Source: a virus
Taxonomy: Duplodnaviria > Caudoviricetes
Strand: one strand, 5' to 3'
DNA: 64,000 bases
IMG/VR virus record: IMGVR_UViG_3300021400_000134
The notes under the pieces were generated by a model. The model had not been told where the DNA came from. It saw nothing but the letters and a program-made list of their open reading frames with translations, and made no database searches. Positions 15,001 through 64,000 of this stretch are shown here, one piece after another (the first letter of the stretch is position 1; the number at the start of each line of letters is the position of its first letter). A program made the translations under genes and the position numbers.

Positions 15001-15003
15001 AAT

Positions 15004-25076: not shown

Positions 25077-26129
25077 ATGACTAAACTCGATTACAGTTTA
25101 AATTCTCCAGAAGAACGTTTAGAAGTCGTCAAAAAGATATTAGAGGAAAATCCCAATCCTGATTCCTACTATCTTGAAATCCTAGCCGACTATCTAGTAT
25201 TCTGCATGGAGAAAGAGGAGAAAAAGGAGAAAAAAATTCTTACCGAAAATCGCTTGGCTACAGTAAATAAAAGAGAAACCTCTTATGAGGGCCTGGTATC
25301 TCAGTTTGAAAATGGAGAAGATGGCGTATACAATATAACAAATAATGATAAACATGTAATTTTTCAACCAAAGATAGCAATAACAGCAAAAGATAGAAAA
25401 GATATTCCTGAATTAAGTCAAACTGACGAGGCAATCGCAGCCTGGGATTACCGGGTGCGCCATTCCGAAGGTAGAGATGCGTTTATAGCAAAGAAGGCTC
25501 TTATCGAAACTCGTAAAGACCAATATGTTATAAAGCAAGCATTCAAGCCTCCAGTACAAGCCATGCATTTAGTGCATTCAGAACATCATATTGAATTGCC
25601 GGAAAGCGCGGAATTTGATGATGAAGGTTATCCAATTCCACATGGAGTATCTTTAATGAATCCTGTTATTTGCTCTACTATATTATGTAATTATGTAAAA
25701 TTAAAAGAGAACAGTTGAGGTGATTTTTTTGGAGATACTTGATATTTAATGGAAGAATTTGATAAAGTTTCTATGCGCGCGTTGGCCCCTTATCCACTCT
25801 ATTATCGCATTGTAGAATGCAAAATAGATGGGCTACAAAATGCGGAAATACGAGATATTATCCAAGAGGAGTTTGGTATTAAACATAGTCTTGAATATAT
25901 CTCATCATTATGGCGTAAAAAAATTCCTAATCTCATCGCATCTGCGGCCGAGGATGAATATTTAGATTATTATTATCTAAATGAGGAAAAAGGTAAGTAT
26001 AAAAGATGTTCTCGTTGCGGACAAATTAAATTGGCTCATAATAAATATTTTAGCAAGAATAAAACCAGTAAAGATGGTTGGTATTCTATTTGCAAGTGCT
26101 GCCGCAATAAAAAGGTCAAAAAACAATAA
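25077..26129 (+). CDS. 350-aa protein with HTH-like segment and C-terminal Zn finger (TGA=Trp x2)
   Basis: ORFs 25047-25718 and 25749-26129 are in frame, separated only by TGA 25716 and 25740; CSRC...CKCC. Confidence 0.75.
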
Positions 26130-26171
26130 TTTGCGGCGACAGCAAACTAAAATATATAAGGAGGTAATTTA

Positions 26172-27422
26172 ATGGATAGAGAAATTAGTAAAAAAGATTT
26201 AATCTATTGCGAAAAATGCCATAAAACATTAAAGCGTGGGGAATTTTATCAATCTAATAATTTAGAAAAATATCCAGACGGTGGCACTATTCCGATATGT
26301 AAGAAATGTTTAACGATGCATGTAGATAATTGAAATCCGGAAACATTTACCCCCATATTGAAAGAAGTAGATGTACCATACATTCCAGAAGAATGGAATA
26401 AACTTCTAGAAAGTTATGGGCAAGACCGAAGAAAAGTAACTGGTATGACTATTTTAGGTAGATACCTATCTAAAATGAAGTTAAAGCAGTTTAAAGATTA
26501 TCGTTGAAAAGACACTGATTTTTTACAAGATTTAGCTGAGAAACGTTTGCGCGAAACCATGGAACGTCAAGGTAAAGATATCCAAGAAATTACTTTGGCG
26601 ATTGAGGAGCAAAAAGCAGTTATTCCTGAAAAGAGTTTTGAGGATATAGTGTTTGCGCCGGCTGATGAACCGGTCGGTTTTACCTCGATGGAGCTTAACG
26701 AACCAGCGAAAACCGCAGATGACCTAGGCTTAACTGATGAAGATATAACTTACCTTAAACTTAAATGGGGTAAGAGTTATAAGCCAGAAGAATGGGTTCA
26801 ACTAGAACAATATTATAATGACTTTATGGAGTCTTATGATATTCAGACTGCAGGTCATAAAGATACTTTAAAAAAACTTGCGAAAACATCTCTAAAATTA
26901 GACCAACTAATTGACTTAGGAGATGTTGATGGCGCACAAAAAATGCAGAAAATGTATGACAGTTTAATGAAGAGTGGTAAGTTTACTGCTGCTCAGAATA
27001 AAGCCGAGAATGGCGAAATTGTTGACTCAATTTCTGAATTAGTTATGATGTGCGAAAAAGATGGATTTATTCCAAGATATTATGTAGATTCACCAAAAGA
27101 TAAGGTTGATAGAGTATTGCAGGATTTACAGGGATATACAAAATCACTTATCACAGAAGAAACAAACATTGGAAATCTTATTGAAAATGCGGTCAAGCAG
27201 ATTGAAGAAGACAAGCGTCGTGAAGCAGAAATGGATGCGGATGCGGCAAGTGATGAAGATATCCTTGAAGATGCACTTTTCAATGATGATATAAATTATA
27301 TTGCGGATGGTGAATTTCAGGAATTTGGCGAATTTGAAGACGAACTAGAGAAAGCCGATGAAGATTTCATGCAAAATCTTACTGATGAACAACTTTTAAA
27401 AGAGTTGAAACGAGGTAAGTAG
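26172..27422 (+). CDS. 416-aa Zn-finger protein upstream of terminase (terminase small subunit candidate; TGA=Trp x2)
   Basis: AAGGAGGT SD; CEKC...CKKC; TGA at 26331 and 26505; position directly before TerL. Confidence 0.7.
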
Positions 27423-27423
27423 T

Positions 27424-29196
27424 ATGGCACTTCAAGATTTATTAGAGCTTTCGCAAGACCGAAAGAAGATTGGCTTATCTGAAGAACGTATTCAAGTGAT
27501 TAAGCCATACTTAACACAGTATATTGCCTTTTGGAGAGAATACCCTGATATGTTTGTGGACTTTCTCCAAACTGGTAGAGATGGAGAGATACCTGAAAAT
27601 GGTTTAAAGTTTTTCTTCTATCAAAGAGTATTCTTGCGTGCGGCAATGCGTTATAAATATGTTTACATGGTATTTCCTCGTGCGTATTCAAAATCATTCT
27701 TATCAGTGCTCGTGTTAATGTGCCGATGTGTTTTATATCCAAGAGCGAAATTATTCGTTACTTCTGGTGGTAAAGAACAGGCAGCAGGTATTGTTAAAGA
27801 AAAGGTTAATGAAATATGTACTCTTGTTCCAGCATTTGACAGAGAATTAGACCGACGTCCTGGTAAAACAAGAGAAGGAAAAGACTATGTATGTTATATG
27901 TTCAAGAATGGTTCATTCTTTGATAACATTGCGGCAAGTGAGAAATCAAGAGGTAAACGTCGTCATGGTGGATTAGTAGAAGAGTGTGTCGGTGTTGATG
28001 GTACTATTCTATCAGAAGTTATTATCCCAACCATGAACGTTTCAAGATTATGTATGGATGGTACAATGCATCCAGAAGAAACCTTAAATAAATCTCAAAT
28101 TTTTGTAACCACTGCTGGTTATAAAAATACATTCGCCTATGATAAATTGATACAGTTCCTTGTTTGGATGGTTACCGAACCTGAGAAGGCTATTATCATG
28201 GGTGGCACCTTTCGCATTCCAGTATTAACTGGATTATTAGATAAAAACTTTATTCAAGACCTTAAACGAGATGGCACATTCAATGAAGCCTCATTTGAAC
28301 GTGAATATGAGTCAAGATGAAGTGGTACTGTTGCGGATGCTTTCTTTAATGGAGAAGCATTTGATAGAAATAGGTCTTTACAAAAACCAGAGTATGAACA
28401 TTCTGGTCGTTCGACTTTACAGAGTTATTATATATTATCAATGGACGTTGCGAGAAAAAATACTGGTAAAGATGGCTGCGATAGCGTCATTACCATTTTT
28501 AAAGTAACGCCGCAAAACTATGGAGAAGTATCAGTAAAATCTCTTGTTAATCTATACACTTTAACTAATATGCATTTTGAAGACCAGGCAATTTGAGCAA
28601 AACGTCTATTCTATAAATATAAAGCAAGACGTATTGTAATTGATGCCAACGGTCTTGGTATTGGTTTAGTAGATTATATGGTTAAACGTCAAACAGACCC
28701 AGTAACTGGGGACGAATATCCAGATTTTGGAGTTGAGAATGATGAAGATGGATATTATAAGAGATTTAAGACTGGGGAAACTGAACAAGAGGCCATGTAT
28801 TTAATTAAAGCAAATGCGCCAATTAATACGGAAGCGCACTCCAATGTTCAGACACAACTTACTTCTGGAAAGTTAAAATTCTTAATAGATGAACGTATTG
28901 CAAAAAATAAGTTATTAGGAACTCAAAAAGGTAAACAAATGACACCAGAAGAAAGGGCAGAATACTTAAAACCATACACCTTAACTTCTATATTAAAAGA
29001 GGAGATGTTAAATCTTCGTGAAGAAAATGAAGGTATTAACATTATCTTAAAGCAAGCTAATCGTGGAATAAGAAAAGATAAATTTTCAGCATTTGAATAT
29101 GGATTATATTATATCAAACAGGTAGAAGACAGTAAGAAGAGAAAACATAAGAAATTTAATGCTGCGGAATGACGATTTAGTTCACACATTGGATAA
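27424..29196 (+). CDS. terL: terminase large subunit, 590 aa (TGA=Trp x3)
   Basis: Walker A-like FPRAYSKS, RGKRR..GLVEE, VTTAG, FEREYESR-W-SG, nuclease motifs YILSMDVAR, IVIDANGLG, KDKFSA; TGA at 28318, 28594, 29170. Confidence 0.9.
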
Positions 29197-29207
29197 GGAG
29201 AATAATT

Positions 29208-29567
29208 ATGAGAGCAAGTAGAGGAGAAATTAAAATAGAAGAGATATTGACAGAAGCAGGACTAAATTTCAAAATGGAGTTATCTTTTGAAGGATTAAAT
29301 AGTTCAAATGGTAAGCCATTGCGTTTTGACTTTGCGGTTTTTGACGATGATGGCAACCTTGATTTTTTAATTGAGTATCAAGGTAGACAGCATTATGAAC
29401 CTAGTAGTAAGTTTGGTGGAAAGAAAGGTTTTTATCAACAGCAATTTAATGATGCGAAAAAACGTAGATTTTGCCAACTACATGATATAAAGTTAATAGA
29501 AATCCCATATACCGATGAAAATCTTATTGATTACGATTATATAATAAATAAAGCATACGGAAAATAA
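29208..29567 (+). CDS. Vsr/DUF559-like PD-(D/E)XK endonuclease
   Basis: LRFDFAV...LIEYQGRQHY...DAKKRRFC..HDIKLIEIPY. Confidence 0.75.
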   Translation: MRASRGEIKIEEILTEAGLNFKMELSFEGLNSSNGKPLRFDFAVFDDDGNLDFLIEYQGRQHYEPSSKFGGKKGFYQQQFNDAKKRRFCQLHDIKLIEIPYTDENLIDYDYIINKAYGK

Positions 29568-29579
29568 GGAGGTGGAGCT

Positions 29580-31172
29580 TTGGATAAACAAGAAAGACAA
29601 GAAGCCATTAGAGAAAAAGGCTTCGATATGAATGGCGCCGCTGACTATGGGAAAATAAAAGTAGGTATTAAAACTCTTGAAGATGCGATTATTGACCTAG
29701 GCTTTTATAAAAAAGTCGAAGGAAGACATTGCTTCGATAAAAGAATGATAATGCGTGCGATTATTGATAAAGATTATCGTGCTATTAAGATTATCTCTGA
29801 TTATTTTTATAGAACAAATGGTATATATCAAAGAATTGTAAACTATTATGCAACTATGTATCGTTGAGACTGGTACATTACTCCAAATATTTATGATGAA
29901 AAAATTTTAGAAAGTGATAAAGAGTGTTTAAAAATAACAAATGAGTTTTTTAAAGCACTGGATTATTTAGATAACACCCATATTAAAAAGTTATGCGGAG
30001 ATATCGCTTTAAAGGTTATTAAGTACGGTGTTTGTTATGGCTATATTATAGAAGGCGATAAAGGTATTTTATTCCAAGAGTTGCCATCAGAATATTGCCG
30101 CTGCCGCTACTATATTAATAATCTACCTGCCATAGAATTTAATATGGCATATTTTGATGAAAAGTTTAGGGATATTAATTACCGTATGCGTGTATTAAAG
30201 ATGTTCCCTAAAGATTTCCAAAAAGGCTATCTTTTATATAAAGAAAGAAAGCTTCAGCCTGATTTCCAAGGAGATATTGGATGTTGGTATTTATTAGACC
30301 CAGGATATGCGGTTAAATTTAGTTTAGCTGGTGCTGGTGATATGCCATTGTTTATTAATGTTATTCCATATCTACTTGACCTTGACGCAGCTCAAGACCT
30401 CGACCGCCGCAAGCAGATGCAGGATTTATTAAAGATTATCGTACAGAAGCTTCCAATAGATAAGAATGGTGATTTAATCTTTGATGTTGATGAAGCTAGA
30501 GATATTCATAATAATGCGGTTGCGATGTTACAACATTCTGTTGGAACAGATATTATTACAACATTTGCGGATATTGATTCTATTGATTTGTCTGACGCAA
30601 GAAATGTTGATAATGATGATTTGGAAAGAGTTGAACGTACAGTTTATAATGCAGCTGGTGTGCCGAAGAATTTATTTAATTCAGATGGTAATATTGCTTT
30701 AACTAGTTCAATTTTGCAGGATGAAGGCGTTATGAGAGACCTTAAGTTGCAATTCGAAATTTTATTTGATACAATAATTCAGAGAAGAGTCAAGAGTAAA
30801 AAGAAATTTAATTTTAGATATTATATTTTAGATACTACACAATATAATTATAAAGAATTATCAAAGATGTATAAAGAACAAATGCAGATTGGTTATGGTA
30901 AGATGTTTGCGCAGATTGCTCTTGGACATTCACAAAATTCTATTATGAGTACAGCGTACTTTGAAAATTCTGTATTAGGATTAAGTGAAATCATGGTACC
31001 ACCTATGATGTCATCTACTATTGGTAGTGAAGATATTCAAAACTTGGGCAAAAAGAATAAATCTGGTAATGGCAATCAGCAAACTAATACAGAAGGAGAA
31101 ACTGGAAGACCTCAAAAGGAAACTACAGAATTATCCGACAAGACAATTGCAAATAGAGAAAGTATGAAGTAG
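29580..31172 (+). CDS. portal protein, 530 aa (TGA=Trp x1)
   Basis: In-frame fusion across TGA 29865; size and position between TerL and protease. Confidence 0.75.
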
Positions 31173-31183
31173 GAGGAGTTAAA

Positions 31184-32458
31184 ATGCATGAAAGTATAGC
31201 AATAGATTCTCCTATTGAGATTGTTGATGTTTCGCCCACTTTAAATCCTCTTATTTCAAAATGTCAGATTAAGGTTTGCTATGTTGGCGATGAACCAAAC
31301 CGCAATGGTAGTGTTATTACAAAAGCTGTTGCGACAGAAATGGCAAAGAGCTTACCTGGATGCCCTATTGTTGGGTATTACAATGAAAATACAGAAGATT
31401 TTGAGGCTCATAATCAAAGCATCGATATCCGCAATGGAGAATGGAATTTTAAAGATACGACTCAGCCTTATGGATTCGTTGATTTAAATGCAAAAGTATG
31501 GTTTCAAAAATTCTCAGACGAGGGAGTTGAGCATGAATATCTAATGACTGAAGGATATTTATGAACAGAACAATTCCCTGAAGCAAAAAGAGTTATTTCC
31601 AAAGGCAATAACCAATCTATGGAATTATATGAACCTGCTTTAAAGGGATTTTGGTCAGAAAGTGATAATGAAGGATATAGTTTCTTTATTATAAATGAAG
31701 CAATAATCTCTAAACTTTGTATTCTTGGAGAGGATGTAGAGCCTTGCTTCGAGGGTTCTCAAATTACAAGAGTACAGTTCTCGTTTGAACCAAGTTTCCA
31801 GCAGAAGATTTTAAATATGATGGAGCAGGTTAAAGAGATGAAAGAAGAAGGAGGGACAGATTCTGTGGAAGAAGTAAAAGCACCTGAAATGGAAGAAGAA
31901 GTTTTAGATAACGAAGAAGAAAAACCAGAAGAAGAAGCTCCTGCAGAACCTGAAGTTGAAGAAACTCCAGAAGAAGAAGCAGAAGAAGCTCCAGCTGAAG
32001 CCGAAGAGGAAAAGCAGGAAGACGAGCAACCTGAAGAAGAATCTGAGGACGAAAGCGTTAAATATAATCTTGATGACATTCAAGAATATATAGAACTAAA
32101 GTCTCAATATGAAGAATTGAAGACACAGTTCGACAATATGAAAGCTGATTATGATAAACTTGTAGAGTTCAAGACAGTTACTGACCGCAAGGAAAAGCAG
32201 TCAATGATTGATAGCTTCTACATGTTATCAGAAGAAGATAAAAAAGATGTTATTGAAAACATTGACAAATATAGTGTTGATGAAATCGAAGCAAAGCTTT
32301 CTGTAATTTGTGTTCGTAACAAGGTTAGTTTTGATCTTGATGAAGATAAAGAAGTAGATGCACCAACAGTATTCAATCTAGAGAATGATGGCATTGAAGA
32401 CGATATGGTTCCTGCTTGGATCAAGGCTGCTATGGCTACGAAAAAAGAGATGGAATAA
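31184..32458 (+). CDS. prohead protease/scaffold, 424 aa (TGA=Trp x1)
   Basis: NRNGS, PIVGYY, H, GYL-W-T, QSMEL, LCILG.DVEPCF, then an acidic coiled-coil scaffold. Confidence 0.8.
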
Positions 32459-32475
32459 TAGGAGGAAGACAGTAA

Positions 32476-33201
32476 ATGGCTAGAACAAGATTAAGTGAAA
32501 AAGCCACATATGTCGCTCGCGGCTATGGTCAGGTTGAACCAAACCACCTTTCAGCTCAAAAAACTGCTCAAATCTATGCTCAATTACCAGCAGCTGCTGA
32601 TATTGACATTTTAGAAAATGGCCAGTTTGCAACATATAACTATGCTGCTGAAGATGGCGGAGCAGTAGACTTTGAAGGCAAAGGCGAGTGGATGATGGTC
32701 TTTAATGAGATCAAGCTATATCGTGACTTTGAACAGGATTGCGATTTCGCAATGAAGAAAGAAGATTATGTTGCTCGTGTATACAGCCCAATTGATGGAA
32801 CACAGCCACTAACAGAATGGCAGGCTCGTTTCTACGGAGCTAAGGATAGTGAAGGTAATGACAACGCTGAACGTGTTGCTAAGTCAGCTTCTCCTTATGA
32901 AGTAGATTCTACAGATGATCCATTCCATGTAGTAGAAAACTACAAAAAGCCAAAGTTTATGCCAGAAGGAACAAGAATGGTTCCTCGTCTTTTCAAGATT
33001 AATATTGGCGATATTTGGACAACAAATACAATTGCTGCTGAACCAGGTAGCCTAAAAGTTGGCGATATGTTAACACCAGGCGCTGATGGTTATCTTGCAC
33101 CAGGTGAAGGCGCAGATGAACTTCACCCAACAATGCAGGTTGTAAAGGTTTACACAATGCCTGATATGCAGCCTGGCGTAAAGGTTATGCGCGTTAAGTA
33201 A
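32476..33201 (+). CDS. capsid-associated (decoration/minor capsid) protein
   Basis: Between scaffold and MCP; GYGQVEPNHL, GDIWTTN; high-expression codon style; no TGA. Confidence 0.6.
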   Translation: MARTRLSEKATYVARGYGQVEPNHLSAQKTAQIYAQLPAAADIDILENGQFATYNYAAEDGGAVDFEGKGEWMMVFNEIKLYRDFEQDCDFAMKKEDYVARVYSPIDGTQPLTEWQARFYGAKDSEGNDNAERVAKSASPYEVDSTDDPFHVVENYKKPKFMPEGTRMVPRLFKINIGDIWTTNTIAAEPGSLKVGDMLTPGADGYLAPGEGADELHPTMQVVKVYTMPDMQPGVKVMRVK

Positions 33202-33219
33202 TAGGAAAGGAGTAAGGAA

Positions 33220-34341
33220 ATGTTAGATAAGAAAAATTTTATTGCATTAGCTAAGACTGTAGCTAAGGCTGATCCTAAAGCTCCTAAAGCGTATAGCTAT
33301 AATGGACAGGATTTCAGCTATGCTGAACTTAACGAAACACTTCGTAATGAGTTCAAAGAGATTGCTGGAACATACCAGTTATATCGTGAAAATAAGAATT
33401 TAGTATTCTCTATTATTGAAGAAACATTAAATGATGTTCTTCCTAAGAGAGTTGTACAGAACTATGGACAGTTCGCAGAAGTTAAGACTTTTGCTCAGGG
33501 CGATAAGCCAATGTTCCGTAGAAAGATTGATGGCACAAATCGTGCTAAGCAGTTCATTACAAGAGTAGGACTTGCAGGTAACTATGAAGTCTTCAAGCTT
33601 GCTAAGACTTCTGAAAGCTTCGAAGTTCCAACAAGTGCTATTGGCGGAGCTGCACAGATTGGATTCGAAGAATTCCTTGATGGTCGTGCTGATTTTGCTG
33701 AACTTACAAACATCGTAATGGAAGGTATGGATGACCTTGTTTACGAAGAAATTGGTAAGGCTCTTGAAGGTGCTATTAACCAGCTTCCTGCAATGAACCG
33801 TGTTGTTGCTAATGGATTTGATGCAGCTTCATTTGATGAACTAGTTCGTCTTGCTGAATCATATGGTAATGTAACAATTTACTGCACAAACGAATTCGCT
33901 GTTAAGATGATCCCTCAGGAAGCTTGGAGATACACAGAAGCTATGAAGGATGAACTCTATAGAACAGGTCGTTTAAGCGGATATAGAGATAAGAATGTTG
34001 TTATCCTTCCAAATGCTTACAAGGATATCATCGAAGGTAAAGAAAAGGTTATCGACCCATCATTCTGCTGGATTATTCCATCAGGTGCTGACATGAAACC
34101 TGTTAAGGTTGCTTTCGAAGGCGACACTCTTGTTGATGAAAGAGCAAATCGTGACTGGAGCCGTGAAATCCAGGTCTACAAGAAGGTTGGCGTAGTTTGC
34201 ATGATGAATAATGCAATGTGCGTTTATAAGGATACTTCATTATCTAAGGAAGGCTCATTCCAGCTTGCAGACACAGTTAAGAACGTTGTTGTTGTTGACG
34301 GCGGCGAAGGCTCAAGCGCACCAGAACCAGTAAATCCGTAA
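33220..34341 (+). CDS. major capsid protein
   Basis: 373 aa; position; biased codons; terminator hairpin 34371-34409; no TGA. Confidence 0.8.
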   Translation: MLDKKNFIALAKTVAKADPKAPKAYSYNGQDFSYAELNETLRNEFKEIAGTYQLYRENKNLVFSIIEETLNDVLPKRVVQNYGQFAEVKTFAQGDKPMFRRKIDGTNRAKQFITRVGLAGNYEVFKLAKTSESFEVPTSAIGGAAQIGFEEFLDGRADFAELTNIVMEGMDDLVYEEIGKALEGAINQLPAMNRVVANGFDAASFDELVRLAESYGNVTIYCTNEFAVKMIPQEAWRYTEAMKDELYRTGRLSGYRDKNVVILPNAYKDIIEGKEKVIDPSFCWIIPSGADMKPVKVAFEGDTLVDERANRDWSREIQVYKKVGVVCMMNNAMCVYKDTSLSKEGSFQLADTVKNVVVVDGGEGSSAPEPVNP

Positions 34342-34440
34342 TACTGGGAACTAATTATAATATAAAAGGATAAAGGGGAGTAGGGGTAAATCCCCTCTCC
34401 CCTTATTTTCATTAAATGGAGAAAAAGGAGATTGTTATAT

Positions 34441-35019: not shown

Positions 35020-35044
35020 TTTATAAGAGAAAGGAGAATATATT

Positions 35045-35641
35045 ATGGGAACTCAGTTCACAGATATATATAATCGCTTTCTTGGTAAAATCACAGATGA
35101 TATGTACATGGAATTAACTCCAGAAGACACAATGAGGGACTTAAGGTCCCTTTTAATTGATGCAATTCCAGGGTTTGAATTTCCTCGTAAGATACTAGAT
35201 GATTTTTCTATCGAAACTTTAGTTGTTAGAGAAGATGCGGTAGAAGAAGGGGATTTTGTTATTGGAGTTGTTTGAAATACTCCTGACGAAGAAGAGGATG
35301 ATGGAATTCCAGACGTATATATTGAACGCTCGCATTTTAATGTAGATTTAACGAGTGAAGAGATTAATATTCTTGCTTTACTAATGATGTGCGGTTGGCT
35401 TCAACGCCAAGTCACATCTATTGAAAATACTCGCATGAAATACAGCGGGTCAGATTTTAAATTTACCTCCCAAGCCAATCATCTTGCCAAACTATTAAAT
35501 TTATTGTCAGAATGCCAGAGACAATCATTCCATATGCAGCGTCTTTATAAGCGCAGACGCATCAACAGTGATGGATATATTGAATCCAACTGGGATGTTT
35601 TGAGAAATGGAATCTTTGGTGACTACGAAGTTAGGCATTAA
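35045..35641 (+). CDS. head-tail connector-like protein, 198 aa (TGA=Trp x1)
   Basis: In-frame fusion across TGA 35273; FTDIYNRFL.KITD, FNVDLT.EEI.ILA, DFKFTSQANHL. Confidence 0.7.
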
Positions 35642-35924
35642 TATTCCTGAGAGTTGTTTTAAGTCTGATATAAATAGACTTACAAATCAACTCTGGAAGT
35701 TAATTCCGATGAAAGAAAATGGAGAAAATTGATTAGAACAACTAAATACTGTTTTGATTGAAATTAGGGGATTATCAGAGATGTTTGCTTCAAATGATAA
35801 GTTTCTAATTCTTTTAAGTAAACTTGAGGGTTTACGAGTATCAGAGGATTTAGAATTTAGTACATATCGTAAAACAGTATTTGAATCAATTTCTTTATTA
35901 AGGGAGATGCTAAATGCCATATAG
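35619..35924 (+). CDS. 101-aa neck-region protein visible only with TGA=Trp
   Basis: GTG...RLTNQLWKLIPMKENGEN-W-LEQL...LLSKLEGL...YRKTVFESISLL; fills the gap exactly; TGA at 35730. Confidence 0.7.
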
Positions 35925-36906
35925 TACTGATAGGTCTCAATTTTCCGGAATAAATTTAATGGCAAATAGAATAAATTGGCATGGTGGGCAACCACAGCAA
36001 GACCGCATGATTCGAGATAAGCGATGGACATTAGATCATGCTACAAAATATTCTTATCAGGCTGCGAAGATAAAACATACCGATGCGGTTGACCAAGAAC
36101 AAGCGCCGGCATTAATTAATCCTGATAAGACAAAACAAAATTATGATGATAAAATTCTCTCTGTTGGTTATGAATATAGATACCAACCAGGAGATGTTTT
36201 TGATTGAATGAATACTGGTTCAAAATGAATAATTTATTTACAAGACTTAACAGAACTAGCCTATTTTAGAGGTGAGATTCGTCGTTGTAATTATACAGTA
36301 TCTTGGTTAGATGAAAATGGTGAGAAATATACTCAATATTTAGCTGTAAGAGGACCAGTAGAAACAAAGATTAATTTTATTCAAAAGAATGGTATTAGTG
36401 TAGACGAGCCTAACCATTCTCTTGATATTCTAATGACTAAGACTCCAGAAGCTCTGGAATATTTTAGACGTTATGCTAAATTCTATCTAAAAGGGATAGA
36501 CGAACATGATAAAAATACTTGTTGAAGAGTTGAAGCAACTGATAGTATTAGTATGCGCGGGGTGCTTCAAGTTGTTGCGGTAGAATATTATGCAAATGAA
36601 ACTAGAGATGATTTAGAGAACTCTCTTGTGGATGGATTAGTTATTGAGCCAGTTGATCCAAATATGATTGACGAGGATTTTGATAATTTGATTAAAGGTG
36701 AAACATTTATTAAACCGAGACAGGATTATAAGTATTTTTATAGAGGAAATGAGACTTCACAATGGAGTATTGATAAAAAAGTTCCTGTTAAACTAATTCC
36801 GCAAGGTAAGAAAGTTACATTGAAGTGGGATAGTGGTTATAGTGGACAATTTGTATTAAAGTATGGCTCGTCAGAAAAAACCATTGTGGTTGAGTCATTG
36901 TTTTAA
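35914..36906 (+). CDS. head-closure/neck protein, 330 aa (TGA=Trp x3)
   Basis: GDVFD-W-MNTGSK-W-IIY; C-W-RVEATD; TGA at 36205, 36226, 36523. Confidence 0.7.
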
Positions 36907-36924
36907 AGGAGAAAATGGAGTATT

Positions 36925-37545
36925 ATGATAATTAAGAACTATTCAATACCACATTCTTCTTTCATGTCGGTTGATAAAGATTTAGAACTTATTACAACCT
37001 GAATGATGAAGAATAAGAATTTGTGTAAAATTCTATATTACACAGACAGGGATGCTCTTAGTAGACCAGCATTGACTGATAAACAGCGTGCAGAATTGAT
37101 GGGTAAAAATATTAAAATTGTTCCTAAATTATATGTTGATGGTAGTGTTTTAGCATATGTTATCATTTCTATGGATAATTTTACACCAACTGCAAATCCA
37201 CAATTTAGAGATAATATTATTACTTTTGATATTATTTGTCATTTTGACCAATGACATTTACAAGATTTTCAATTGCGTCCTTATCGCATTGCTGCTGAAA
37301 TTGATTCAATGTTTGATAATCAGCATCTAACTGGAATTGGCGAGATGCATTTTATGGGAGCAAGCCAGATTATTCTTAATGACGAATTTGCTGGATTAAC
37401 ATTAATGTATCAAGCGATTCATGGTGGAGAGGATAAGAAAAATGCCCCAAATCCACAAGACAATAAGCAAATGGTTGATGATTTTAATGAACTCTATGAT
37501 CAAGATTTTACACCATTAACTATTTTTAAATCATCGGATGAATAA
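36925..37545 (+). CDS. tail completion/terminator-like protein, 206 aa (TGA=Trp x2)
   Basis: DIICHFDQ-W-HL...LRPYRIA; TGA at 37000 and 37252. Confidence 0.65.
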
Positions 37546-38267
37546 TGAAAGACATTGAACTTGCACTATTCACTGGAGTAGATATTCCTATTCCAGAGTG
37601 TCAGATAATAATTCATCAACCATCAATTAAAGAAATTTCTATGCTTGGTGAAAGATGGTTTTTAACAGGTGTTCAAGTTTTGTGTATAGATAAAGAGCAA
37701 TTTAAGAAGGACAATTCAGATTTATCTAATACTACTAATTTTCAAATATTTATGACAATAATGCATGAGAAAGAGGCTAGAGAAAGTAAAGAGAGCGTAA
37801 TAGAAGCTCTTTCTTTAATAGTTCCTAATTCAAAGGTCACTCTTACTCCAAGGTCATTATTGTTAAATTATAATGGCGCAAACATTATAATAGATGAAGG
37901 AAATTTTGATAGTTTTCAAGAAATCTTACGGCAAGTTTTTTGTTTAAAGAAAAAAGAGGATGATTTTAATCCAGCGAATGCGGCTGCTGCAAAAATCGCA
38001 GAAAAAATTAAAAAAGGTCGAGCTAAGGTAGCGCATTTAAAGGGTGAAGATGTGGGCAGCGTTTATGCACGCTATATATCAGCTTTATCTGTTGGATTAA
38101 AGATTCCAATCAAAGAATTAATAAATTATACAATTTATCAAATAAATGACCAATTAGAGCGTTTTGGATTATGAACTAATTGAGATTTAGATATTCGATC
38201 AAGACTTGCTGGGGCAAAAGGTGACGGCAAGCCTGAAGATTGAATGAGAAATATCCACAAGGATTAA
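37545..38267 (+). CDS. tail-assembly-region protein, 240 aa (TGA=Trp x3)
   Basis: Read-through to TAA 38265 closes the gap to the next SD; LAGAK...W. Confidence 0.65.
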
Positions 38268-53000: not shown

Positions 53001-54360
53001 GAATAACTGGAATGGTGATTTGCAAATTGATACTCAGGGCAATAAAATTTTAGCTTCTATGGTTGGTGCAGGACATAAAGATGAGCATAATACTTTTAGT
53101 GGAGTGCTCATGGGAGATGTCCAATATAAGGATGACTATAGTGGCGAAGATATTATTACTACTGGATTATTTGGTTATGACAAGAGTGAACAAACTTTTG
53201 GGTTTAATATAAATGGGCAAGCATTTATTGGTAAGTCTGATGTTGGTAGAATTTATGTTGATGGTAATACTGGACGTATTACAAGTGCTGCAAGAGAAAG
53301 TTATGATATTAATAAGGCTAAGGGGGTAACAGATAATGACCCTCGTGGTACTGAAATTAATTTAAAAGAAAATTATATTGATATTCAAGGCGAAAGTACT
53401 AGTGTTGCTGAAGATACTAATAAGTCTAGAATTCATATTGATACTGCAATTAGACCCAATAATCAAGGTGGTACTAATGCATATTTTTCAATAGATAGTA
53501 ATAATGGCAAGCGATTAATTCATATTGCTAATGATGAATATTATTTACAAACAGAGGATTACCCTTCTAGTCAAATAGAAGTAATGACTCAAGATGGGGG
53601 AACAACTACTGTTACAAGACCGTCAGGACTAAAGATAGATTTAAAAAATGGTAGCTTTGATTCTAAAGGTAAATTAACCATTACCGGTAATAGTGAATCT
53701 AGTATAAATTTTGGTAATGGCACATTTAAAGTCGATGGAACTGGAGAAACTACTTTATCAAGTTTAACTTTTAAAAATCCTAACACTGGAGTTGTTCAAG
53801 CAACTGGAATCAAACCACATTGAATGACTTTTGTTTCTGACATAAGTGGAAGTGTTACTTTGCAAAAAGTTACTGTTACTATGGACAATATTCCTGTACC
53901 ACATACAACAGTAACAAATAATTATAACACATATACCACTTACAATACTGCTGAAGGGACAACAACATTTAAATATGTAAATAACACTACTGCTGGCATT
54001 ATATCAAATTATGTTGATGATGTAGTAACTGGAGATGTTACAGGACAAATAACGGGAGATTTTTCTCCTAGTGCAAGTCCAAGATTTTATAATCATAGCG
54101 CTACAGTGCATTATAGTTATACTGTTGAAACCCCAGTGGTAGAAGGCCCATATAAAACTACGACTACAGATACCGTTTATGTAGATGGCAAAGGTTCTAC
54201 AGATGTACCAGTTGTTACTGCGATTAATTTTACGATAAAAAAAGTCTCAATGTGGGCTTTAACAAATGATACCGCACAAACAAAAACTTATTCTATTAAT
54301 GCAAAAGGAGATGCTAGCTATACTGGCGAAGCCATTGTCCGTACTATGACGGAGGTTTAA
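50053..54360 (+). CDS. large tail/baseplate protein, 1,435 aa (11 in-frame TGA)
   Basis: Six fragments in one frame; AGGAGG SD; beta-rich C-terminus. Confidence 0.75.
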
Positions 54361-54361
54361 T

Positions 54362-54761: not shown

Positions 54762-54776
54762 AAGGGGGTAAAAAAT

Positions 54777-57700
54777 ATGGCAAAATTATATCCTCCATAT
54801 ATTGAAGGAACATTGCCAGCGTTTTACTTAAATAAGAATGGGGATGGCGAATTAGTCATCCCCTTTGCTCATAATCGTGCCTTAGTAAGTAAAGAAGAAA
54901 TATCTTCTTTTGCTATAAAAATTAAGTCGGTACAAAATGATGTGTTGTATGGCGATGTAGAAGTTGGTGCGAATTGAGAAGGTAATGAAGTAAAGTTTGA
55001 AGTTAATAAATTTAAAATTGCGGAATTAGAAGATTTAACTTTTAAAATTGGACAGTATTACAAAATTCAAATGGCATATATTGATAGAACTGGTATTGTT
55101 GGATACTATTCAACTGTTGGTGTTGTTAAATGCACATCAGAACCAGAAGTTAGTATAATGAATTTTGACGAGAATAAAGTTAATAATAATGCCGCAGAAT
55201 TTATAGGACTTTTTAAACAAGCTGAAGATGGTGATGTTAGTGAAAAAGTTTATTCTAGTAAGTTTATAATAACTGATTTAGAAGGTAATGAAGTTTTCAG
55301 TTCTGGAGATATATTACATTCAATAGAAAACAACCCAAATTCTTACGAGTCTCAAGATAGTGTTTATTTTAACAGAGATTTGGAATATGGTGAAATATAT
55401 AGAATACAATATATAGTTACTACAACTAATGGTTTAGTTATATCTAGCCCAAAATATCTTTTAACTCAGCAAAAATCTATTTATATGGAATTAAAGGGTA
55501 AATTAGTAGCAGATTTAAACTATGATGAAGGATTTGTTGATTTAAAGATTGAGGGCGCTAAAAATGAAAATGGTGCTGAAGAAATTATAGATGGCTTGTT
55601 TATTGTATCAAGAGCTGATACTTTGAACCCAAATGTTTGAGAAGAATTAACTAGATTTAGTTTAAAACATGAATATCCATCTAGAACAATCTTTAGAGAT
55701 TTTACTATTGAACAAGGTAAAACTTATACCTATTCATTACAGCAATATAATGCTAATGGAATTTATTCAGATAGAAAAAAATCCAATGAGATATTTGCGG
55801 ATTTTGAAGATATGTTTTTGTATGATGGTGAACGTCAGTTAAAGCTGCGTTTTAATCCGCAAGTAAGTAGTTTTAAAACCCAGTTAGCAGAAACTAAAAC
55901 AGATACTATTGGTAGTAAATATCCATTCTTTTTTAGAAATGCGCGAGTTGGTTATAAGACATTCCCAATTTCTGGATTGGTGTCAATGTTAAGTGATGAC
56001 AATCAATTTTTTACATCATATAAAGAGATTTTAAGAGAAGATACTAAGGCTGATAGAGAATCTACAGCCGCAGAATATACTAAAAAATTATGACCACCAA
56101 TTATGGATAAAAATACTGACTTGGTTTCTGATAATTTTGTATCAGAAAGATTGTTTAAACTAAAGGTTTTAGATTGGCTAAATGATGGCCATGTAAAATT
56201 ATTTAAATCTCCAGGAGAGGGAAATTATTTAGTTAGATTAATGGACAATTCTTTAACTCCAAATACACAAGTTGGTAGAATGCTACACACAGTAAATGCT
56301 ACAGCCTATGAATGTGCGGAATTAAATTATAAGAATCTAATAGATAATAGAATTGTTAGGGAAGTCCAATTGCGCGATGAGGACACTTATGTCCCAAGCT
56401 GGAGAGATTTTACTTTAGACAATGAATGATTAAATGAAAATACTTTAAAACCTGTTACCGCAGCCAAAAAGGGCAGTAATATGATTTTAGGTGCGTATGT
56501 AAGTTCACCACAACTATTAAGTGATATTAACTTGCTTGATACAGAAGATGCGCCGGGTGCATCAACAACAATGCTAAGGTTTTTAGACTGCTTACCAGGA
56601 GACAGAATTAGATTAGTATTTGATACTTCTGGAGCAAAAGAGGCCAAAGATCATGTTGACATTACTATTGGTGCAACTGGTAATTACATGGCAGATGATT
56701 TAAGACCAGTTTATGGTATTTATTTCTTATCTGATATTGGTTATGGTTCAGATAGTAACTATAATCGTAGTGGCTTTCCATCAATTAGTTATCAATATAA
56801 TATACCTAATAGAACTGCTTTTAGGTCTATTGAAAAAATTCAAGCTGATATTGGTGGATATAATCAATTTGTTGGTGAAGTTCCAAATTTAGTTAAGCAT
56901 TTAAGTTATACTAGAGAAGTTCCTACTAAATTATGCTTTTCAAGATATTTTAAAAGACCTGTTGAGTATTTATATTACGCAACAGATGAAATACCAAATG
57001 TTATAAGTGGAGAAGATATATTTGATGGGACTTATGACTATTGGGGATATAGAAATTTAACAGAAAAGTATGCTTATCGTTTATCTTGGGATGTATCTAC
57101 AAAACATCTTTCTCAAGAAGAAAGAGAAGAAAAAATGAGAAAGTATACATTCCAAAAGACAAAAAACACAAATGGTTTAAATGAAGACTGGTGAGAAGTA
57201 CAGGATTGAGCTAGATATTATGCTCAGGTACAAGCTTTCTTAAACGGAGTAAATCCAGAAGATTTATCTCCAGAAGAATTAGAAGATCTTTATTATCCAA
57301 AACAGTGATTAATGTATTATAAATCAGTTGATAACGATAATTTATTACCGACTTATGCTGATGTTTCTGCTCAAATAGGAGGTGGAAATAATTCAGATAG
57401 ACATATTCAAATGATAATACAAAAATCAGATGGGTCTTGAACCTCTCATGGATCGAGTTGTTCTCATGCATATAATTGATTTTTAGATAGTTTAGAGCCG
57501 GGAGAGGTGGCTTATGTTTGGAAACCTACTCTTGGAGATGAAGAAGTCGCATATCACACAGACCAAGATGGAAATACTATCATTGACATGTCTGCCTATA
57601 AAGGAAGAGAAGAAAGTCCAGAGTGGTTTGATGACCAAGAAAGTTTACAGTATTCTCCATTCTCTTTATATGTTTTAAGAAATCAATATATTACAACACT

Positions 57701-58310
57701 TGATGGTGTTAGACAAAATATATTTAATCATTTACCGACATCTTTACCAATAGAAGAAAAAACCCATGTTGTTAACCATGCTTTTGAAAGATACTATATT
57801 GATAGATATATAAATGCGCAGACACCTGAAGAGATGCTTGAAGAGCGTACTTTACTTGCGCAGCAACTTGCCGCAGATGGAAATAATGAAGAAACTGCTG
57901 CGGTAGATGCAGCAACTGCTTTATATGTACTAGATGCTTGATACGGAAAAGTATATGAAGTAGGTAAAGATTTTATGTATGATCCATCTATTACATATAA
58001 TAATGAAAATATTGATTTGCGTGAAATTGATAGATATGAGTTAGAAGCTCTAGAGCCAGATGAAACAACTATTAAAGTTGGTAATGGGGTTTATGGGGAT
58101 GTATATTACCAGAAGGTAGAGCAAACATTCTCTTATGAACCAGAAGAGTATAAAAACGCTTGAGAGTCTGCGGTGGCCGCTGCAAAGATCGCTTCACCGG
58201 GATATAAAGAAGAAGCTGCAGAGCGAGCTGCATATAAACTATTAAATGATGGTATTGATGCTGAAAGAGAAGCATGACAAAAATTAAGAGGCGAGGAAGA
58301 GGAGGTATAA
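54777..58310 (+). CDS. distal-tail/baseplate-like protein, 1,177 aa (multiple in-frame TGA)
   Basis: Seven fragments in one frame ending at TAA 58308; DTIGSKYPF..RN..VGYKTFPISG motif. Confidence 0.75.
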
Positions 58311-58313
58311 TTT

Positions 58314-60746
58314 ATGAAAAACCCAATGTTAGATGAAGTGTTTTTACATGAATTAGACCAGTTTCAGCACAAGTTTATCTGAGCTAAAATTATCGCCTTA
58401 AATTGAGATGAATATCCATTAGAAGAGATTACAGGGCGTATTACAAGTGGAAGTATTAATATTGATGGTGCTTCTGCGGTAAGACGTACCTGTAGTCTTA
58501 CTCTCGCCGCAAATGAAGTCAATATAAATAATTTTTATTGAAGTCTTAATACTAAGTTTAGAGTAGAGATAGGATTGGAGAATTGAATAAATCCAGATTA
58601 TCCTGATATTATTTGGTTTAAGCAGGGAACATTTATAATATCCACATTTAGATGCTCTGCTGGAGTTAATAATTATACAATTAATATTCAGGGTAAGGAT
58701 AAGATGGTGCTATTAAATGGAGAAGTTGGTGGTGTTGTTCCAGCTTCATGAGATTTTGGCACAGAAGATGTAACTATGGAAGATGGAACCATTCAAAATA
58801 ACCCAATTCCTATTAAAGATATTGTTTTGCAAGCCGTTCATGAATATGCGCAAGAGGGTTGACAGAATATTATTGTTAATGATTTAGACGATTATGGCAT
58901 TGAGCTTTTGGAGTATGAAGGTGGAACGCCGTTATATTATATAATTCAGTATGATGGAGGCGCCAATGATTCGAGAGAAGTTGTTAATATGACTTTAAAA
59001 GGTGATATGCCTTGTTGGGTGCGTCAAGATACTTGGAATAATGGTAGACAGATTGGCGACAGATGAATTGCAACAACAATTTCGGAGCTGGAAAATGCTG
59101 GGGGAACGGGAGGCACATCCAGTGCCGGGCGGCTCTGTTATGAGAAGTTGATGGAGCAGCTTGATCCTAGCGGCGCAGTCACGGAAACTGCAAATTATTT
59201 GCGCGCAGTGGTAACACTAAAAGATCCAAATAGTGGTATAACGGACGAGGATTTATATACTATTGCGAAAATAACAAAAGATAATGGATTGCAAGTTTGC
59301 GGTTATCGCATTTGTGATATTATATATCCTTATGATTTGATTGCTTCTCCTGGCGAAGCATTAACATCAGTTTTAGATAAATTAGTAAAGATGCTTGGTA
59401 ATTTTGAGTATTTTTATGATGTTGATGGAAGATTTATTTTCCAGAAAAAAAAGACTTATTTGGATGTTTCTTATAATAATATTTTAAATGAGCATTCTAT
59501 AAGTGAAGAAGTTTGAGCAGATAATAGCGAGTTTAGTTCAAAATATTCTTATACATTTGATAAGGATACTCTCGTATCTTCTTTTCAGAATAATCCTAAT
59601 TTAAGCAATTTAAAAAATGACTATTCTCTATGAGGACAAAGAAAGCAGGGCGATATTGAAGTTCCTATTCATATGCGCTATGCAATAGATCATAAACCTG
59701 TTTACTATAAAACTTGAGATGGTATAGTCTATATTTCAGAACAGGGTATGCAAAAATATGGAGAAATTGGTGATGTAGTTGATTGACGTGAATTAATTTA
59801 TCAAATGGCAAATGACTATCGTCGTCATTACAGAGATGAAGATTTCTTAATTACCTTAAGAGATAATAATAAAATAGGTACAGAATATTTATATCCAAAA
59901 GGTTATACTGGATATGAGAAATATTATATTGATTTTGAAATGAATCTATCTCAGGGTATTGTAGCCTATTGGAGAGAATTATATAATCCAGATGTTAGAA
60001 ATAGTGAATTAAGAGATGAAAAAGTTCATTACCAGCAAGTAAAAGACAAAGTTGAGATGATAAAAGAGTCTGAGTTAGAGGATTGAACTCCTTCTAAAAT
60101 ATATTCTAAATCTGATTTAGTTAGATATAAAGATACTTATTATCGTTCAATAGCAGACAATAATCAAACAGAGCCGCAATCAAAAGAGGCTAAATGAGTA
60201 AGTGACTATTATGTAGTATATAACTCAGACGGTTGGAATCTTGATATTTTAAATAACCCAGAAATGTTAAATTTTTGATTTGATTTTTTAGATACTGATG
60301 GATTTTTAAATAGATATAGCGTTTGTAATATTGGGCAAAGGTCAAAAGCCGCTAATGATGATAAGATAAAAGCCATATATTTTAGAGAAACGCCAAATGT
60401 AATTTTTGAATTGGCTGATGATATTAGTCAAGCAAATTGACGTAAACCTGGGTATGCGCATATTCGTATTCCAAAGGGTTTAGATAATATGTTTTCGATT
60501 AGCTCAAGAGGTAAAAATGCAATGGATGTAGTACAAGAATATCTTTATACTTATACTTATCCAGTTAGCGCAGTTACTTTGAATGTAGTTCCTATCTACT
60601 ATTTATCACCAAATACCTTGATTTATGTAGATGATGAGGCTACTGGAGTTGTTGGCGAATATATTATGCAAAAATTTTCATTCCAGTTTGGCGTAACAGC
60701 ACAGATGACAATAAATGCTGTTGAAACAGCGAAGCGTATATATTAA
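58314..60746 (+). CDS. tail hub/tip-like protein, 810 aa (multiple in-frame TGA)
   Basis: GRITSGSINIDGASAVRRTCSLT; FEYFYDVDGRFIFQ; VPIYYL.PN.LIYV. Confidence 0.75.
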
Positions 60747-60761
60747 GGAGGAATTGGAGTA

Positions 60762-61097
60762 ATGGCAAAGAAACTGCTACAATTTCGCTACAAGGTAAAA
60801 GGTGATGAATATAATTATCCTAAGACAGCTGATGGAGAAGGCTTTATTAGCGGAGATGTTTTTTCTAGCGTTATGCCAATTTCTCAGCTGGGTATTCAAG
60901 CATTACCTGGTACGAAATTTTATTTAAATGGCGCAGTAAATCCAATAGTAATAGGTGTTTCAGGAATTTATGATTTGGATATACGAAATGGTGCTAGAAT
61001 TACTAATTTAAGATTCTCAAAGGAGTCAATAGAGAGAATAGAAGGAAGCATTGGCGGTTATTTGATCGTTGATGTATTATATGGAGAGGAGGATTAA
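60762..61097 (+). CDS. small tail-associated protein
   Basis: LGIQALPGTKFYLN...G.SGIYDLD. Confidence 0.7.
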   Translation: MAKKLLQFRYKVKGDEYNYPKTADGEGFISGDVFSSVMPISQLGIQALPGTKFYLNGAVNPIVIGVSGIYDLDIRNGARITNLRFSKESIERIEGSIGGYLIVDVLYGEED

Positions 61098-61100
61098 GAT

Positions 61101-64000
61101 ATGGGCTTTTATGGTAATATAACTAATATTAATAAAACTACTTTCCAGTTTGATAAAATTTATCCAAATCGTAAAGAAATGGACGATGCTTGCGCCGGTG
61201 ATGGAGTTTTTATTGGTAGATATGTTTTAGTCGATTATAACGAAGATTCTATTCTAGGATATGTTCATGCGCAAATTGCCGATGAAAATTTAAAAAATAA
61301 GCCGGTTGTTGTTGGATATCAGGAAAAAAGAGAAGATGAAAATGGGAATGTTGAAATATTGGCTGATAGATTTTATAGTGGCATTCCAGAAGTTACAGAA
61401 GATGGCACCGCTATTAAAACTGATAGGTTATATAAAATTGGGGAAGAGACCAGTGGTTCAACTGTTGCTCCAGATACTTTACTATTAAGTTTAGGCTATA
61501 TTTCAACAAAAGTCGAAATAAAAAGAGAAGGCGGTACAGAAGAAGAACCAATAGAGTCAATTCATTATATTATTAATGGTATTGAAAATAATAATTTTAA
61601 TCCTCAAATTTTTGTGGCTAGAGCTCCTGCTGAAGAGGGCGAAAGTGCAGATTTCCTTCTTTTAAGAGATATTGACAGTATTTGGGATTGGAATAAAGGA
61701 AGGTTCTTTATAAATCATCAAATTGATGCTACCTCTTATGGAGAAAGTAATATTGGTAGGGGTTGAGATTCTACTGTATGACAAAAGGTCTATAAAGATG
61801 GTACACCTAGTTATGTAATGGTAGCAGAGTTAAATTCTGTTGTACCTACATTTGACGTTGTATCGGATGCGCCAACTGTAATTCCGCAAAAGCCATATTA
61901 TGATGCAGATTCTTCAAATGTATATTATAGATTACATATGCAGCCATCTTGAGGATTACGTGTAAAAGCAGATGAGGACAAAGATTATTCTGATGGAGTT
62001 GTATTGCCATCAGATGTAAAGGGCCCTTATGAAAAACGCTATAATTATACGGAAGATGAAGATTTGGCTATTTATTGATTTAAAGATGGTTTTAATAAAT
62101 ATATTGAAAGCGTTTCTGAATATAATGAAGATATTGTTAAAATGTCGCCCACTGGAAAAAGTGGTAATACTTATTACGAAAATGGCACATTTGGGCAAGA
62201 AAAAATCGATACTTATGAATTAAGTATGATGTTACCTTCAATTGGTCAAGCAGTTTCTAATTTATGGGATATTGTATATGGTAAAGGTACTTATACAGAT
62301 ATTTTAGGAAATACGCTATGAGATAAGAGTAGAACAGATTATGATTTTGTCTATTCTAAAAAGCCAGTAGAAGGTGATGAAGATTCAGAAGATATTAAAA
62401 TTAGAAATACTGCATTAGAATGAAATACTCGCAATGGCGCAAGAGCATATTGAGAATATGATTCTGAAGAAGAACGTAAAATTACATATAATAAAGAAGC
62501 GTTAAATACATTAGCTGGTACAATTAACTCAGCGCATGATTTAATGGGAATGATTATTATAGAAAATGATAATTTATTAAGCAGCGATAGTAGCCTAAAA
62601 GCTAAAAACGCAGACCCAAGTAATATTTATTATGATAAAACAACTAAAAAATATTACAGAAAAGGAAAGAAATATTCATTTTCAGGTAGCGCGCCTATTG
62701 GTATTAGTGGTTCTAATATGTTTAATCCAGCAGATGGAAATCATTATAAGTTAGAGTCTTATGCTTATGATAACTATGATAACATTTATGCAGAAGATAA
62801 GGAATCTGATACACCTAAATATGAGCAAGTTGTTAATAATTATTATAAAGTAAAAAATACCGATATTCTTTTTGAGAACGAGGTTTATGGAACTTTAACT
62901 TCAAGTAAAATAAATAATTTTAGTCCAAAAAATTATGATCCATCTGGGGAAGAAGAAACAGATTTCTTATGGTGGCGTTGTACTGATCATGCTTTACCAC
63001 ATTATGTGCACGAAGTTGCGGAAACTCCAGCGCATGGTTCTTATTATAAGATAACCGCAGAACTTACTGCAGAAAGGCCAACATTCTATACCCCTAAAGT
63101 TTATTATTTAATGAAAAATAGTGAGCTTGCAACAGTGCAGGAGAGAGAGGATTGGGAAAATCCAGATAAAACCAATTTTAAACAAGCAGATTTTAATTAT
63201 TTGGGGATAATGAATGATGCTACACTAACGTCAGCTTTGGTTAACAATGGGATTAACCTAAATGATGAAAATAGAACCGTTGGTTATAGAATATTAAAGG
63301 GTGTTAGTGTAGACCCATCTCGTTCTGATTATATCTTAGTAGATATTAATAGACGTAAAAATGAAGAAACATTAACAACTGACTCTAATATTACACAAAA
63401 TGAAGATGGTGCTTTTGTTTATCAGTGAAATAATTTAGAAGCAACTCTTCAAAGCGTGGATACTATTGTTGAAGAAGTAACTGTAGAAGATGAGGTTCAA
63501 TATATTGAAAAATATCAATATGATATTACAGTTTTTAGAAGTCCAAGTCATACAGCTTTAGGTTCAAAGACTTTAAAAGAGTGGAAAGAGTATATTGAAA
63601 ATCTAGATAATCATGTTACAATAGAGAATTTCAGTGATTTAATTCCAGACATGAATTTTGAAAGAAGAATTACTGACCCATTCTATACACTTGACCGTGC
63701 TACAGATGTTACCAAGATAATTAAAGACCTTGTTCAAGAGAACGGCATTGCAACAACAGGATACTATTTCTTGTATGATGAAACAGCTGCGGCTAGAGAA
63801 GATATTCACGATGATAATGGTCAACGTTATTACGAACCAATTATTAATCCTAATAGCACTCAAGCAGAGAGTTCATCTTGATACAAATTAACAATTACTC
63901 CAGTACCAATTTATTATAGTCTAGATGGGCAATACTATATTAAAAATAATAATAATTTCTTAAGAGAAACTGCTTCAATTCTATTCTTAGAAGAATTGGA
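61101..64000 (+). CDS. tail fibre / receptor-binding-like protein, runs off the window (multiple in-frame TGA)
   Basis: MGFYGNI...FDKIYPNR..MD....DGVFIGRYVLV; GRG-W-DSTV-W-QKVY; fragments in one frame. Confidence 0.7.

Follow-up and report, generated by a model that had tools for sequence, protein, structure and literature searches.

Late genes and their in-frame TGA codons

We analyzed a stretch of 64,000 nucleotides (nt) from IMG/VR virus record IMGVR_UViG_3300021400_000134 (Duplodnaviria; Caudoviricetes), referred to here as the window, whose late genes carry TGA inside their coding frames. This DNA covers the early-to-late portion of a ruminant-gut phage of siphovirus type with a genome of ~140 to 180 kb, and its kin are SPbeta, the Enterococcus phages EF1 and VRE9_4, Geobacillus phage E3, and phAss-1. 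This is one genome in two codes, with early genes in the standard code and late genes in which TGA stands for tryptophan (Trp). Gut metagenomes of 13 studies (bovine, sheep, and others) contain DNA near-identical to the window, as do RNA sequencing (RNA-Seq) libraries of one sample.

Under translation table 11, the late plus-strand region, from ~25 kb to the end of the window, appears as a run of short open reading frames (ORFs). Calling with table 4 fused these into 22 closely spaced genes (25077 to 64000; 12,473 codons), the first of which has its ATG at 25077. An earlier reading of this DNA, made without database searches (the sequence-only reading), held that the fragments of each late gene lie in one frame and are split by TGA alone, and that read-through restores packed genes ending in TAA or TAG beside the next Shine-Dalgarno (SD) sequence. 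Both statements agree with our counts. The late coding frame contains 92 TGA codons and no TAA or TAG; frame +1 contains 895 stops (444 TAA, 321 TAG, and 130 TGA) and frame +2 contains 1,819 (742 TAA, 245 TAG, and 832 TGA). The 21 complete late genes end in TAA (19 genes) or TAG (2 genes) and never in TGA, the spacing between genes is mostly 1 to 25 nt, and a GGAGG-type SD sequence lies upstream of nearly all late starts. With TGA counted as Trp, this residue makes up 1.26% of late residues (92 TGA plus 66 TGG codons), a normal value. The base at position +4 after a sense TGA showed no bias compared to all codons. In the terminase gene, which has in-frame TGA codons inside it, substitutions relative to related phages numbered 35, 15, and 201 at codon positions 1, 2, and 3, respectively. 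Since the differences fall mostly at third positions, the late frames are under purifying selection.

Late-gene identities were assigned from PHROG profiles and gene order, and all of these genes lie on the plus strand. The first (25077 to 26129) encodes a sigma-factor-like protein (phrog_5767) with two in-frame TGA codons, at which relatives carry TGG, TGA, or tyrosine (Tyr) codons. It is followed by a gene with a phrog_3314 profile (26172 to 27422; two TGA), the large terminase (27424 to 29196; three TGA, at codons 299, 391, and 583), a free-standing HNH homing endonuclease in the terminase-portal interval (29208 to 29567; no TGA and no Trp), the portal protein (29580 to 31172; one TGA), and a scaffold-position protein (phrog_3313; 31184 to 32458; one TGA). 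Two genes in the major-capsid position (32476 to 33201 and 33220 to 34341, the latter phrog_4088) have six TGG and no TGA. Head-tail joining and virion structural genes (35045 to 35641, 35914 to 36906, 36925 to 37545, and 37545 to 38267) contain nine TGA in total, and a virion structural protein in the tail-tube position (phrog_2729; 38287 to 39357) contains none; the capsid and tube roles were assigned by synteny alone. Downstream lie two genes 5′ of the tape measure (39599 to 40726 and 40791 to 41315; three TGA); the tape measure gene itself (41428 to 49938), which under table 4 is a single ORF of 2,836 amino acids (aa) with 24 TGA versus 9 TGG; and the tail/fiber genes (50053 to 54360, a table 4 ORF of 1,435 aa; 54777 to 58310; 58314 to 60746; 60762 to 61097; and 61101 to the window end), with 47 TGA versus 24 TGG. 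The order of terminase, HNH, portal, scaffold, capsid, and onward to tape measure and tail is that of SPbeta/Enterococcus EF1-like siphovirus morphogenesis modules, with PHROG families in common, and the late gene order of VRE9_4, a standard-code Enterococcus phage, is identical to that of the window.

The sequence-only reading assigned TGA to Trp and cited four peptide contexts, all of which were found in the late proteins of the window. With X written at each TGA, the late proteins were compared by alignment with 80 related IMG/VR loci, which had been retrieved by means of the terminase; glycine (Gly) or mixed residues in the TGA columns would speak against Trp. Across ~1,150 cases, the relatives' codons in these columns were TGG (680) and TGA (183), followed by Tyr codons (113 TAT/TAC, of which 107 were TAT) and phenylalanine (Phe) codons (39 TTT/TTC, of which 36 were TTT); no Gly or cysteine (Cys) codons were among the counts listed. 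The loci without sense TGA gave the same answer, with TGG in 478 of 681 cases, Tyr or Phe in ~110, and Gly in none of the counts listed. Terminase codon 299 is TGG in 71 of the 80 loci and TGA in the other 9, and the TGA column of the scaffold-position protein is TGG in 61 loci and TGA in 5. In the cultured phage VRE9_4, TGG occupies 8 of 32 alignable TGA columns, compared to a Trp background of ~1%. On the strength of these alignments, the reading of late-gene TGA as Trp is well supported.

Use of TGA is uneven across the late genes. The claim that recoding runs throughout the morphogenesis operon stood as far as the 92 late TGA codons go but did not extend to every gene, as 6 of the 22 have no TGA, including those in the capsid and tube positions. 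The same holds across the clade: in 20+ code-4 relatives, TGA accounts for 1 of 124 Trp codons in the capsid-position genes (1 TGA versus 123 TGG) and 0 of 33 in the tube-position gene, or 1 of 157 when pooled, compared to ~65 to 72% of Trp codons in the tape measure and most tail genes. Such clade-wide avoidance by the most abundant virion proteins fits suppression that may work below full efficiency, and it hints at a limit on that efficiency.

The edge of the operon did not prove to be the edge of recoding. A plus-strand gene in a separate block (5922 to 6677; 251 aa) has one in-frame TGA (6045 to 6047), with codon periodicity on both sides of it. We compared this site in near-complete relatives of the phage, designated G001 to G004 (138 to 178 kb; CheckV completeness, 79 to 95%), each of which has 64 to 95 in-frame TGA codons in aligned late codons. 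The codon is kept as TGA in G001, G002, and G003. This conserved sense TGA indicates that recoding reaches beyond the morphogenesis operon.

Early genes that end in TGA

The left 25 kb of the window is made up of numerous small genes, most of them on the minus strand, and coding potential, conservation, and SD sites show them to be written in the standard code. No long ORF opens in positions 1 to 25000 under any single reassignment, which raised the possibility of a further unusual code there; this was rejected in favor of the small standard-code genes. The stops of 34 confident early genes comprise 22 TAA, 4 TAG, and 8 TGA (24%), all 8 TGA-ended genes being on the minus strand. TGA-ended genes thus number 8 of 34 in the early region versus 0 of 21 among the late genes.

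In two of these genes (at 672 and 854; 672 to 1171, minus strand), TGA overlaps the next start as ATGA behind an SD sequence. The TGA of a minus-strand gene at 12694 is followed by an intrinsic-terminator-like hairpin. For the minus-strand gene at 16444 to 17115 (phrog_20187), homology to an 89%-identical ortholog stops two codons before TGA; its paralog at 14091 to 14804 is of similar length (237 versus 223 aa) and ends in TAA. The remaining four lie in one minus-strand block (17326 to 21777), at 17326 to 17733, 18906 to 19346, 20606 to 20854, and 21550 to 21777. Promoters of the TTGACA-17-TATAAT type follow the TGA codons at 18906 and 20606, and at 20606, the TGA lies inside the −35 box; a T-run or other noncoding sequence follows those at 17326 and 21550. 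Where it could be measured (17326 and 18906), codon periodicity is gone past the TGA, with counts of 17, 16, and 18 at the three positions beyond 17326. Because promoters, terminators, or ATGA overlaps come after the early TGA codons and conservation ends there, the early module uses TGA as a working stop. The view that recoding is concentrated in the late genes is upheld by these minus-strand genes, and the window offers a clean example of early genes that truly stop at TGA beside a late operon with 92 sense TGA codons.

Several early segments (1900 to 2800, 4100 to 4500, 7700 to 8100, 9800 to 10200, and 11700 to 12100) are open on both strands, with opposed ORF pairs of 100 to 130 codons. 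Coding conservation was seen on one strand only, and composition or codon bias may be the cause of the paired ORFs.

A search for suppressor tRNAs in the window and its relatives

Neither ARAGORN nor Rfam found a tRNA(UCA) in the window, and there was no exon-like match to the suppressor of the relatives and no group I core motif in it. No release factor or tryptophanyl-tRNA synthetase (TrpRS) was found in the window, and its early region contains nothing of the size of TrpRS or release factor 1 (RF1). The absence of tRNA(UCA), already noted from the letters, was borne out by these searches; the suppressor locus of the relatives lies past the right end of the window. The only tRNA-like element of the window, 90 nt long, is on the minus strand at 15003 to 15092 (46 bits with the Rfam tRNA model). 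It has normal acceptor, D, and T arms and a noncanonical anticodon arm, with an anticodon loop of 6 or 8 nt and a long unpaired variable region, and the syntenic site in the collinear relative G002 is a normal tRNA-Lys(CUU). It could represent a pseudo-tRNA, or else an element derived from a tRNA. Labeled tRNA-Leu(CAG), it was considered as a hidden suppressor and rejected, as its anticodon arm is noncanonical and gives no UCA reading.

The four relatives carry 22 to 30 tRNA genes per genome, and ARAGORN called a tRNA(UCA) in G001 and G004 only. The tRNA(UCA) locus is nonetheless syntenic in all four, being intact in G001 and G004 and present as halves ~200 nt apart in G002 and G003. The G004 gene is intronless and specifies a 72-nt tRNA with A1-U72 and G73, like phage tRNA-Trp(CCA). 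The pair A1-U72 and the base G73 are identity elements of bacterial tRNA-Trp. The G001 gene (c58412-58506; L114) likewise lacks an intron; it is 95 nt long and type II in shape, with a long variable arm that is paired, and it has G1-C72.

In G002, the tRNA(UCA) gene is a plus-strand gene at the distal end of an ~80-kb recoded late block. Facing it is a minus-strand block whose large genes contain no in-frame TGA. By collinearity with G002, the equivalent position would be ~40 kb past the right end of the window. None of the four relatives has a match to the RF-1 domain (PF00472) or the class Ib aminoacyl-tRNA synthetase (aaRS) domain (PF00579). Extra G002 matches to the tRNA model were examined as suppressors and rejected, their anticodons being UCC-like and CAU. 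Separately, at the place of G001's tRNA-Trp(CCA) after tRNA-Leu(CAA), G002 has only a weak Trp(CCA) call with a poorly pairing 5′ half (143983 to 144165; L128), and this element may be degenerate or interrupted.

G002 and G003 are the two closest relatives, and in both, the break in the tRNA(UCA) gene falls between anticodon positions 34 and 35. Split loci are L152:9038-9310 (G002, 96748 to 97015) and L150 (G003, 101637 to 101910), and the arrangement is also seen in L146 to L149 and L151. The predicted intron is 196 to 211 nt long, is inserted after U34, ends in G, and carries conserved GAAGATATAGTC and AGACTAGA elements. Rfam Intron_gpI (RF00028) matched the insert over the whole model with an E value of 0.0014 and a score of 22.7 bits, compared to a cut-off of 50, and Rfam at gathering thresholds made no call on it. 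Removal of the intron in silico restored tRNA(UCA) calls of 73 to 75 nt at all five complete loci tested; the tRNA regained in this way is Trp-like, and the split gene is missed by standard tRNA finders. We also placed contigs from two DNA and two RNA-library runs containing this phage on the G002 tRNA-intron locus. These contigs represent divergent intron-bearing copies, including loose ends reading ...GGTCTTCAACCGCG..., and no intron-skipping joint was seen in the contigs of the four runs, an outcome that is neutral on splicing.

Group I introns occur in the anticodon loops of bacterial tRNAs, as in cyanobacterial tRNA-Leu(UAA) and Azoarcus tRNA-Ile. Like these, the insert in the relatives is compact (~200 nt), follows a 5′ exon that ends in U34, and ends in G; as in tRNA-Leu(UAA), it lies between anticodon positions 34 and 35. 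Unlike the bacterial examples, it sits in a phage opal-suppressor tRNA gene, and it is a predicted intron whose Rfam score is below the cut-off.

A proposed code switch, its rivals, and known systems

The plus-strand morphogenesis/tail operon and one upstream gene use TGA as a Trp codon, and the minus-strand early genes follow the standard code and often end in TGA; a switch made by a phage tRNA(UCA) would account for both. We consider this explanation highly probable. Early in infection, the host ribosome would stop at TGA, and late proteins would stay incomplete. Once a Trp-like phage tRNA(UCA) became available, TGA would be decoded as Trp, and the tail, tape measure, terminase, and portal proteins would be made at full length; in the version found in the closest relatives, the suppressor would need to be spliced before it could act. 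Since neither a release factor nor a TrpRS is encoded by the relatives, the tRNA is assumed to be charged by host TrpRS and to compete with host release factor 2 (RF2).

Several points weigh against this model. The Trp identity of the tRNA and its charging are deduced from identity elements and alignments, and a suppressor for the phage of the window is projected from its relatives. Splicing in those relatives is a prediction from in silico intron removal. A standard-code host is suggested by the phage's own early-gene TGA stops, Bacillota-type SD sites, and promoters. Finally, completion of the sigma-like protein encoded by the first late gene would itself take read-through at two TGA codons, which complicates the proposed order of events at the switch.

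The main competing explanation for the two-code pattern would dispense with a switch: the host, a Mycoplasma-like bacterium, would use table 4, and the whole phage would be written in the code of its host. Such a host would suit the low GC content (31 to 42%), relatives that infect Bacillota, and the one plus-strand gene with a sense TGA outside the late operon. It is hard to reconcile with the early module, where TGA ends 8 of 34 confident genes, promoters, terminators, or ATGA overlaps come next, and homology and codon periodicity cease at these codons, or with the large minus-strand genes of G002 (presumably the replication module), which have no in-frame TGA. The relatives, moreover, bring their own tRNA(UCA), and sister lineages are TAG recoded or use the standard code. 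We consider a table 4 host very unlikely.

A different amino acid at TGA (Gly, as in table 25, Cys, or selenocysteine) is more improbable still. ARAGORN does label the relatives' tRNA(UCA) as SeC, purely on the grounds of its anticodon, and the G001 copy has the long variable arm. Against this, TGG dominates the TGA columns, the listed counts include neither Gly nor Cys codons, and the 92 TGA sites belong to ordinary structural proteins. At ~72 to 75 nt, the tRNAs that lack an intron or have it removed resemble phage tRNA-Trp(CCA), having G73 and A1-U72 (G1-U72 in one copy). Least probable of all is that the in-frame TGA codons are damage or artifact, from a decaying prophage or misassembly, or are crossed through natural leakiness with no tRNA dedicated to them. 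In Bacillota, UGA is leakier than the other two stops, a general point to which nothing specific to this phage can be added. Damage would not break frames by TGA alone and never by TAA or TAG, nor would it recur in 28 independent contigs and in runs of 13 studies or leave the strong third-position substitution bias of purifying selection, and the 24 TGA codons within one 2,836-aa protein are too many for low-level leakiness.

The model of a tRNA-driven switch has a possible refinement, which we put forward tentatively and with more doubt than confidence: the switch may be gated by self-splicing, such that tRNA-Trp(UCA) is made as a precursor split in its anticodon and TGA-containing late genes are translatable after splicing only. 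If so, split genes would explain why standard finders miss suppressors in most code-4 phage genomes, and TGA avoidance in abundant virion proteins would reflect limited suppressor capacity. Suppressors hidden by group I introns may account for some of the missing ones in code-4 phages.

Stop codon recoding in phages is an established phenomenon, reportedly described by Ivanova 2014 and Yutin 2021. Gut phages with a genome in two codes and recoding biased to late genes were described by Borges et al. (bioRxiv 10.1101/2021.08.26.457843; published 2022), who detected suppressor tRNAs in 35% of code-4 genomes. Late-gene TGA recoding in phages is thus already known, and the phage of the window is a further case. 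A close parallel in that study is the cattle/pig "Agate" clade (10.1101/2021.08.26.457843), in which TGA aligns with Trp, in-frame TGA codons occur in structural, tail, and lysis genes, other modules use the standard code, and the host is predicted to be a standard-code organism. As in the relatives studied here, a suppressor tRNA is the sole code-change gene in most genomes, and standard, TAG-recoded, and TGA-recoded members are closely related. The relatives studied here differ from Agate as described in their genome size (138 to 178 kb versus ~127 kb); in addition, 24% of the confident early genes in the window end in TGA, compared to 2.7% TGA stops in a standard-code Agate relative, and the suppressor of the closest relatives carries a predicted group I intron. 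The "Jade" code-4 phages (Borges et al.) likewise use TGA as Trp in lysis and late genes and are phages of Firmicutes. Jade, however, has an operon of TrpRS, RF1, and tRNA(UCA), and since G001 to G004 have neither an RF-1 nor a class Ib aaRS domain, theirs is not a Jade-type code-change operon. phAss-1 (a human-gut "Phassvirus"; PMC10607447; OQ749652) shares the terminase lineage, a large genome, suppressor tRNA genes, and recoded late genes but recodes TAG (code 15), with 64 in-frame TAG and no TGA in aligned codons.

We found no description of an intron-split phage suppressor in Borges et al. or in the literature searched. Three points go beyond the literature searched: the putative intron split in the suppressor of the closest relatives, the near absence of TGA from capsid-position and tube-position genes throughout the clade, and the high share of TGA-dependent early genes. 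The two-code genome supports the idea that recoding serves to time late and lytic functions, in the manner of a lock. On the practical side, gene callers that use table 11 shatter the late genes, and annotation of such phages needs a module-aware use of two codes.

Among the 80 related loci, TGA is used as sense in 28, TAG in 42, and neither in 6, with 4 being ambiguous. In the terminase tree, the window falls inside a code-4 clade whose neighbors are code-15 and other code-4 lineages. TAG-recoded, TGA-recoded, and standard-code loci of the terminase family (IMG/VR relatives L018 to L075) are interleaved on the tree. The code-4, code-15, and standard-code neighbors point to repeated code changes in the family, in line with what Borges et al. 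published.

Terminase identity is 47 to 49% to Enterococcus and Geobacillus phages and 45% (44.6%) to phAss-1; at the nucleotide level, megablast and blastn comparisons of the window to cultured phages yielded no useful match. Exact 53-mers from the end of the window had no match in viral or metagenome contigs, and the exact-protein match was a single 3-kb Logan contig. In Enterococcus phage VRE9_4, too, the terminase-portal interval holds an HNH homing endonuclease. The terminase match in EF1 and EF5 is broken into three pieces, and the features annotated beneath it include an HNH homing endonuclease.

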